The notes: generated by a model not told the origin, from the letters alone. A stretch of 64,000 nt of DNA from a virus (IMGVR_UViG_2609459826_000002); one strand, 5' to 3'. Shown: positions 1 to 819, counted from the first letter of the stretch. Made by a program: numbers and translations.

Positions 1-349
1 GATAATCGGGCAAACAGGCGCATGGAGGCGATTTCGTACAGGGCATCTTCCATGGCACCGTCGCTCAGGTTGTACCAATGCTGCATGCAGTGAATACGCA
101 GCATGGTCTCCAGCGGATAGGGCCGTCGGCCATTGCCCGCCTTGGGATAAAACGGCTCGATGACAGCGGTCATATTCTGCCATGGCAGAATCTGCTCCAT
201 GCGGGAGAGGAAAATCTCTTTTCGGGTCTGACGGCGCTTAGTGCTGAATTCACTATCGGCGAAGGTGAGTTGATGGCTCATGATGTCCCTCTTGGATGCG
301 CTCCGGATGAATATGATGATCTCATATCAGGAACTTGTTCGCACCTTCC
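1..349 (-). mobile_element. IS5 (partial, runs off window start); transposase N-terminus encoded on complement <1..281
   Basis: Reverse complement of 1..281 translates to [36 protein letters not shown]..., the N-terminus of IS5 transposase; terminal sequence GGAAGGTGCGAACAAGTTCCTGATATGAGATCATCAT at 313..349 (rc) matches the IS5 end. Confidence 0.8.
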
Positions 350-352
350 CTA

Positions 353-600
353 TTGGCGTTCCGTTCTTCTGGCCGTCCGCTGCAATGCCAAATACTGTAA
401 TCGACAGCTGGTCCAGTATGGTGTTTTTGAAGTTCAACGGGGCGAAATTTTCTGCCTCTGATTACCCTGTGCTGGCGAAAGTGTTTCCTTCACTGGTATT
501 ACCTGAAGCCCGCGGTGATTTCATTCGTATCTGGGATGACGGGCGAGGTGCCGATGGTGGTCGCGAATTATTAAGCTGGCAGGAAGCTACAAACTTTTCT
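353..600 (+). pseudogene. Tail fibre gene fragment (Stf/tail-collar-like motif), inverted relative to the tail module
   Basis: Plus-strand translation IGVPFFWPSAAMPNTV...FNGAKFSASDYPVLAKVFPS..LPEARGDFIRIWDDGRGADGGRELLSWQE resembles the conserved side-tail-fibre motif; no intact N- or C-terminal context; boundaries approximate. Confidence 0.5.
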
Positions 601-819
601 CAGTTTGCTGCGCTGAAGCAGCCACAGTCGGGAGCCGTAACGGTCATTCTGTACCGCAGGCCAGGTATCCCCCCACCATCCCATCGGGACGTCGGCGTTG
701 TCATCAGGCTCCGCCCGCCGCCAGGTAAACAGGGAAATCACCACGGCGCGGGTCAGCGGATCCAGCGGTGCGCTGGCGCAGGTGCGTTTACCGTTCACCG
801 TCAGCCACAGTTCCATCAT
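571..819 (-). CDS. Mu gp46-like baseplate protein, apparently 3'-truncated at a rearrangement junction near 595
   Basis: 82-aa ORF with conserved-looking core ISLFTWRRAEPDDNADVPMGWWGDTWPAVQNDRYGSRLWLLQRSKL; ATGA overlap with upstream gpV-like gene; C-terminal residues read antisense into the tail-fibre fragment. Family assignment from memory. Confidence 0.45.
   Translation of the reverse strand: MMELWLTVNGKRTCASAPLDPLTRAVVISLFTWRRAEPDDNADVPMGWWGDTWPAVQNDRYGSRLWLLQRSKLRKVCSFLPA

Follow-up and report, generated by a model that had tools for sequence, protein, structure and literature searches.

The tail end of an SfII-like prophage in the 64,000-nucleotide stretch analysed here (IMGVR_UViG_2609459826_000002, hereafter the window) was very probably ruined in two steps, an event involving an insertion sequence (IS) and then a deletion at a 9-bp microhomology that left a defective tail end. 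In intact relatives the tail operon closes with gp44-gp45-gp46-gp47(J)-gp48(YmfQ)-fibre-tfa, beyond which lie an inverted tfa'-fibre' cassette and the pin invertase; two pix sites bound the segment that Pin turns over, and the fibre tip changes with its orientation. In an older step, common to three complete genomes, an ISKpn26-type element would have ended up 9 bp inside the silent cassette, with loss of the pin-proximal pix and of pin and with the segment frozen as the outcome. In a later, lineage-specific step, a RecA-independent microhomology deletion, by slippage or template switching between one copy of TCAGTTTGC in the silent cassette and another in gp46, would have taken out 3757 bp and kept one repeat. 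The end product would be an 81-codon gp46 stub fused to the antisense cassette, with gp47, gp48, the fibre and both assembly genes gone. The sequence changes behind this account were observed directly.

An undeleted parent allele was found in E. coli 2022CK-00450 (NZ_CP104681.1, locus L001). Window positions 1-608 corresponded to L001 7645-8252 and positions 600-1400 to L001 12001-12801, both at 100% identity, and on the right side the match continued at 100% to window 14500. TCAGTTTGC occurs twice in the parent (L001 8244-8252 and 12001-12009) and once in the window, at 600..608, where the parent alignment places the deletion junction with a single retained 9-bp direct repeat; exactly 3757 bp between the two parental copies are missing. 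The lesion thus has the form of a short-direct-repeat deletion, the repeat being present twice in the parent and once at the junction, with flanks unchanged at 100%. TCAGTTTGC is the sole 9-mer common to the cassette and gp46, and the chance of a junction microhomology of at least 9 bp was P=7.5e-5 for random breakpoints within both genes. According to the parent annotation, the lost DNA comprised the rest (~60 codons) of a cassette labelled 'phage tail protein, missing N-terminus', two tail-fibre assembly genes (one on each strand), a gp53-like fibre domain and the StfP constant part, the YmfQ wedge gene, baseplate J/gp47 and the C-terminal 69 codons of gp46. The tail module may already have been defective before this deletion, since ymfQ has an internal stop in the 2022CK-00450 allele; the gene is intact in strain N9.

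Efficient RecA-dependent recombination is usually considered to need tens of base pairs, and the 9-bp repeat is shorter. RecA-independent slipped mispairing or template switching was probably the mechanism of the deletion. E. coli is known to undergo such deletions at short direct repeats (PMC5426353, PMC7145654); the present lesion resembles the known cases in that two parental copies flanked the lost DNA and one was left, and nothing about it is unusual, its 3.7-kb span lying within the reported range.

The left edge of the window (1..349, minus strand) is the right-terminal 349 bp of an ISKpn26-type element, recognised by identity to an annotated copy, Pfam and the terminal inverted repeat. 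These positions equal the last 349 bp of a 1196-bp element at 100% identity (L001 7645-7993), annotated by RefSeq in NZ_CP104681.1 as 'IS5-like element ISKpn26 family'. A 16-bp terminal inverted repeat lies at 334-349, the IS end GGAACTTGTTCGCACCTTCC stopping at 349, and the transposase start codon lies at about 279-281 on the minus strand, with the gene reading toward position 1; its N-terminal 93 codons match Pfam DUF772. The source contig stops at window position 1, an assembly break within the IS. The element shares with IS5 of E. coli K-12 (insH) the family, the terminal inverted repeat GGAAGGTGCGAACAAG, a DDE transposase with an N-terminal DUF772 domain and a length of about 1.2 kb, but it differs in being 1196 rather than 1195 bp (IS5A) and in its RefSeq name, and identity to K-12 IS5A was 88% across the terminal 349 bp and 91% across the whole element. 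We thus assigned it, by sequence comparison, to the IS5 family as an ISKpn26-type member distinct from IS5 itself. A reading of the window made from the sequence alone (the sequence-only reading) had the fibre fragment cut at ~349 by the end of IS5; the position was right, and the name needs narrowing to IS5 family, ISKpn26-type. A 326-codon ORF at 62970-63950, considered as a second IS5 copy, was ruled out, as IS similarity in the 64-kb window is confined to positions 1-349, and no second IS5-family copy was found there.

The junction between the IS and the cassette occurs in three of 5426 complete E. coli genomes, namely 2022CK-00450 and strain 81, in both of which it is unaltered, and N9, where an IS1 insertion comes next to it. 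Deleted and undeleted alleles are identical base for base at this junction, and in the sister assembly L008, which keeps collinearity with the parent through the IS and as far as an AraC regulator and the CP4-6-like genes ykfI/yafW, the 3757 bp are the only difference. The IS event is accordingly the older one and the deletion a later and separate one, because the IS junction occurs without the deletion and stays unchanged with it. In the parent the flanks of the IS differ (CTAA on the left, CTAT on the right), so that no 4-bp target duplication is present. This mismatch suggests an IS-associated deletion in the loss of pin and pix, a step outside the window, which could have been an IS-mediated adjacent deletion, or an insertion followed by IS-IS recombination.

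The same element might have made the gp46-cassette deletion as well, either by transposase-mediated adjacent deletion or by recombination of two IS copies. The IS abuts the region, its flanks in the parent do not form a matching target duplication, and other deletions at the same locus, in strain 81, are due to IS1. Nevertheless, the left deletion endpoint lies 250-259 bp from the IS end, the IS-cassette junction did not change between the deleted and undeleted alleles, the partner copy that recombination would call for is absent from the window, and none of the 5426 complete genomes had an allele whose gp46 breakpoint carries an IS copy. We consider this origin of the deletion very unlikely; an IS mechanism plausibly explains the first step, the loss of pin and pix, though not the gp46-cassette fusion.

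Between the IS end and the junction, positions 350..599 of the plus strand hold the 5' part of an StfE-like tail-fibre C-terminal cassette, 83 codons in a frame from 352, identified by PHROG 3100, identity to L001 and similarity to StfE. The frame translates as IGVPFFWPSAAMPNTV...RGDFIRIWDDGRGADGGRELLSWQEATNFS, with IGVPFFWPSAAMPNTVIDSWSSMVFLKFNGAKFSASDYPVLAKVFPSLVLPEARGDFIRIWDDGRGADGGRELLSWQEATNFS as the longer reading, and the tail-fibre motif that the sequence-only reading had pointed out on this strand was borne out by a match to PHROG 3100 'tail fiber protein' (E=6.9e-38, profile positions 220-293 of 382). The fragment is 40% identical to K-12 StfE in an alignment beginning at StfE residue 23, and this cassette part equals L001 7994-8252 at 100% identity. 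In Pfam the fragment by itself gave a weak, sub-threshold tail-collar match, and the fragment together with the downstream nonsense sequence gave no match, so the fibre assignment was decided by PHROGs. The cassette lacks its last ~60 codons on the right, through the deletion, and ~3 codons on the left, through the IS. Phage vB_EcoM-606R2 carries the same cassette in the expressed orientation, 9 bp past pix, in a fibre gene reading ...AAACCTTGGTTTGGGAGAAGGTGCCCCAG|CTATTGGCGTTCCGTTCTTCTGG..., and the IS end of the window joins exactly at the bar.

The gene order of the parent mirrors that of e14 in K-12 (ymfQ - stfP - tfaP / tfaE - stfE - pinE), where the inverted repeats AAACCTTGGTTTGGGAGAAG / CTTCTCCCAAACCAACGTTT (pix) flank 1797 bp; in vB_EcoM-606R2 they flank 1794 bp. 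The e14 P segment has been published at 1797 bp with its repeats, and it still inverts, giving StfE2/StfP2 (PMC12529663). Like the e14 segment (homologous to Mu G/gin and P1 C/cin), the system has YmfQ, a fibre constant part and two opposed fibre-tip/tfa cassettes, of which the silent one lies on the other strand as a promoterless fibre ORF ('N-terminally missing'), and the fragment in the window begins just past the position of pix. Two opposed fibre-tip and assembly cassettes behind a constant N-terminus are complete in the parent, whereas 83 codons are left in the window, which, unlike e14, is without both pix sites, pin, the constant part and both tfa genes, so that neither inversion nor a fibre is possible. 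A tblastn search of the window with K-12 PinE found nothing better than E=4, and no pix-like site with up to 7 mismatches was found in the window or in the parent locus L001. In E. coli TUM9868, where this prophage has an unchanged chromosomal context, a recombinase pseudogene remnant stands beside the cassette at the invertase position, which in the window is taken by the IS; with pix and pin gone, the segment was frozen by the IS event.

The window thus holds a remnant of a Pin/Din-type invertible segment and is no longer a member of that class, in agreement with the former invertible segment suspected in the sequence-only reading, which is recognisable from the e14/vB_EcoM-606R2 layout, with its Pin-type invertase and silent cassette. 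That reading had also left a choice between inversion and deletion of the fibre region. The evidence supports deletion, with 3757 bp lost between 9-bp repeats, and no inversion has to be assumed, because the opposite-facing cassette is the layout native to e14 and vB_EcoM-606R2. The fragment is the silent, promoterless alternative receptor-binding module of the former Pin-invertible segment, and its opposite orientation is the native one. As for the deleted DNA, the StfP constant part of the parent (L001 9799-9900) retains just the left half of pix (AAACCTTGG|ATTAACCAACG) and, by manual codon reading, appears to be in frame with the gp53-like domain, which RefSeq lists as a separate gene; the parent may express an unconventional fibre, fused at the pix core.

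Since the region is a former Pin substrate, and Pin enzymes of other prophages can work in trans on e14 (PMC12529663), a Pin/Din-family recombinase supplied in trans might have excised the segment between direct pseudo-pix sites. The deletion endpoints scored at best 12/26 and 11/26 against the 26-bp pix, which is the mode of the background distribution, and the window holds neither the pix-like sites nor the Pin homologue searched for above. The true pix sites lay elsewhere, one lost to the IS and the other within the deleted DNA. Moreover, serine invertases exchange strands at a 2-bp core, and such an exchange would not leave a 9-bp shared repeat. Excision by Pin is very improbable, and short-repeat deletion remains our explanation of the second step.

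The deletion junction is real. The 81-aa fusion protein (ATG at 816) is deposited in GenBank as KDW21386.1 from E. coli 2-156-04_S4_C1. For the protein look-up we used this form, whose start is the one annotated in relatives; an exact look-up of the 82-aa form from the first ATG (819) gave no match. The exact 81-aa protein was indexed in 29 blocks and present on at least 24 contigs (24 read) from NCBI isolates, ENA metagenomes and a Logan run, and all eight retrieved loci aligned across the junction without gaps at 99.9-100% identity. The longest carrier contig, JNPJ01000107.1 (68,081 bp), stops exactly at window position 1. None of the 5426 complete E. coli genomes had the junction (megablast with window 1-2500; the full query was never covered, and prophage matches started at 600). 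An exact 40-mer across the junction was absent from the GTDB species representatives, which is expected because E. coli has a single genome there. One carrier of the deletion allele, the metagenome scaffold ERZ28595413 (L007 7517-11559), has a BCCT transporter and a DUF2254 protein past the IS, so that its left flank differs from the AraC and CP4-6-like genes seen in sister assemblies. This implies either that an IS rearranged the flank once more or that the metagenome scaffold is chimeric.

An assembly artefact or chimera might be suspected, as the window comes from a short-read draft and its contig terminates in an IS. However, the junction was identical at 8/8 retrieved loci from independent assemblies (NCBI isolates, ENA metagenomes and the Logan run), the fusion protein occurs on at least 24 contigs, and a 9-bp repeat is probably too short for an assembly-graph collapse, which makes an artefact scarcely credible.

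On the other side of the junction, the truncated gp46 fusion ORF (571..816, minus strand; a baseplate wedge protein of the Mu Mup46 / P2 gpW / T4 gp25 class, by Pfam GP46, PHROG 180 and tblastn) consists of 72 native codons (816-601) and 9 foreign codons, with its stop at 571-573. The foreign codons are antisense fibre-cassette sequence, and residues 1-72 are 100% identical to the parent by tblastn. The stub matches Pfam GP46 (PF07409) with 61.8 bits (cut-off 28.6) at positions 1-52 of 101 only and the PHROG 180 baseplate wedge subunit at positions 3-80 of 148, whereas the intact parent gp46 has 141 aa and covers Pfam GP46 positions 1-100 of 101, which makes the window ORF a truncated family member. 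The frame is translationally coupled to gp45 by an ATGA overlap at 816. Upstream, gp45/V spike (816-1364; Pfam Phage_Mu_Gp45), gp44/P hub (1364-2443; Pfam GpP-like/Gp44-like domains) and the gp43 DNA-circulation protein (2440-3774; Pfam DNA_circ_N) all lie on the minus strand; over 816..3774 these genes are intact, 100% identical to intact NZ_CP104681.1 CDSs and 97.6% identical to phage SfII. The operon runs toward position 1 with gp46 last, and a tblastn search of all 64 kb found no homologue of baseplate J, YmfQ, StfP or Tfa.

Several claims of the sequence-only reading are settled here. It had the gp46-like ORF losing its conserved sequence about 70 codons in, near position 595, in accordance with the 72 native codons and with the end of parent homology at 600-608, and it had rightly listed the downstream baseplate and fibre genes as absent from the window. 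Orthologues in relatives measure 141-142 aa (2022CK-00450, TUM9868 and SfII) and not ~80 aa, and past the IS the sister assemblies show the AraC regulator and CP4-6-like genes, with neither fibre nor baseplate genes. A short arrangement that is ancestral and functional, with an ~80-aa gp46 as the normal form and the longer allele arising by insertion, would be consistent with the open 81-codon frame coupled to gp45 by ATGA at 816 and with nothing further, and it is already refuted by orthologue and profile comparisons, given the half-covered Pfam GP46 profile, the full-length orthologues in 2022CK-00450, TUM9868, N9 and the functional SfII, followed by J, wedge, fibre and tfa, and the antisense fibre cassette in the final 9 codons.

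The prophage is of the SfII/SfV/e14 type, with an HK97-like head, a Mu-like contractile tail and a lambdoid early region. Window 600-14000 was 97.6% identical to SfII over 95% of its length, 97.3% to SfI, 97.7% to SfIV over 76% and 96.8% to SfV over 67%; the head and tail module is collinear with that of these temperate myoviruses, with the gene order confirmed in SfII. The label phiP27/Mu-like given earlier thus needs adjustment to SfII/SfV-like, as the closest characterised phages belong to the SfII/SfI/SfV family rather than to phiP27. The baseplate gene order is the same in SfII, SfI, SfIV and SfV and also in ST64B and phiP27-like phages. In the SfII operon a 142-aa gp46 homologue is followed by J, a wedge subunit, a short tail fibre and tfa. 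SfII is functional with this full tail set, while the window prophage stops at gp46 codon 72 and differs in its early region; no gtr genes were seen in it. The parent prophage is attached at a tRNA-Thr (thrW)-type att site.

Mup46/Mup47/Mup48 correspond to T4 gp25/gp6/gp7, P2 W/J/I and T6SS TssE/F/G, the conserved baseplate wedge (PMC6300606). From what is known of contractile-tail assembly, neither a baseplate nor fibres should be possible with the wedge, fibre and assembly genes missing, which agrees with the defective tail module proposed earlier. Lack of a baseplate would mean lack of tails, and because the head, sheath, tube, tape-measure, lysis, repressor and integrase genes look intact, induction might still give, at best, tail-less heads.

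These results bear on annotation: KDW21386.1, the short 'phage GP46 family protein' of this lineage, is a stub made by deletion and fusion, the fibre fragment on the other strand is what is left of an invertible segment, and E. coli 2-156-04_S4_C1 should be recorded as carrying an SfII-like prophage with a defective tail. The system, the phage family and both inactivating processes (IS insertion/deletion and short-repeat deletion) are already known. The locus is a clean and fully reconstructed case of a prophage decaying step by step, first through capture of its invertase end by an IS and then through a deletion at a 9-bp microhomology, with possible use as a teaching case or lineage marker; it raises no new biological question and has little importance past annotation.

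A mechanical ORF of 193 codons (280-861, plus strand) begins in the IS end and crosses the fibre fragment and the junction into antisense gp46 and gp45. By analogy with the e14 chimera StfE2 (PMC12529663), the remnant might not be inert, if this ORF were transcribed from the IS and yielded a free receptor-binding fragment that blocks adsorption of other phages; or the loss of the baseplate might be a selected domestication, with head, lysis and regulatory genes kept. Both ideas are highly improbable. Against expression stand the absence of promoter-like sites, the missing C-terminal 60 residues and a tail made of antisense gp46. The scan of window 1-1400 found neither promoter-like sites nor terminators.

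Related prophages have decayed at the same locus in other ways. N9 has an IS1 insertion in the same fibre cassette, at about window position 496 (L016 6623-7831), strain 81 has IS1 together with loss of the entire structural module (L015 6123-7254), and TUM9868 has a deletion through which a pin remnant is fused to internal cassette sequence near window position 462 (L004 6784-7322). These are three further independent decay routes at one locus, which underlines that this is routine prophage erosion.

Elsewhere in the window, two overlapping ORFs at 20185-22574 (plus strand; considered together with 18543-19595, minus strand) are opposed to the surrounding prophage genes. One encodes a 388-aa NA37/YejK-like nucleoid-associated protein, and the other a 408-aa protein with no Pfam or PADLOC match; PADLOC gave no match for the pair, which adjoins a type II-like N6/N4 DNA methyltransferase. 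The late-regulatory region that holds the pair differs from the otherwise near-identical 2022CK-00450 prophage, and the pair looks like a moron or possible defence cargo. Further on, a partial tRNA-Thr/att repeat of 56 bp (33383-33438), but no complete tRNA, comes after the integrase of the window prophage (32215-33378). Next in this region (32215-34931, and onward to ~46000) come a second integrase (462 aa) and an island with a type I restriction-modification system. The same prophage directly adjoins tRNA-Thr/proA in 2022CK-00450, and the arrangement in the window looks like tandem islands at a thrW-type attachment site.
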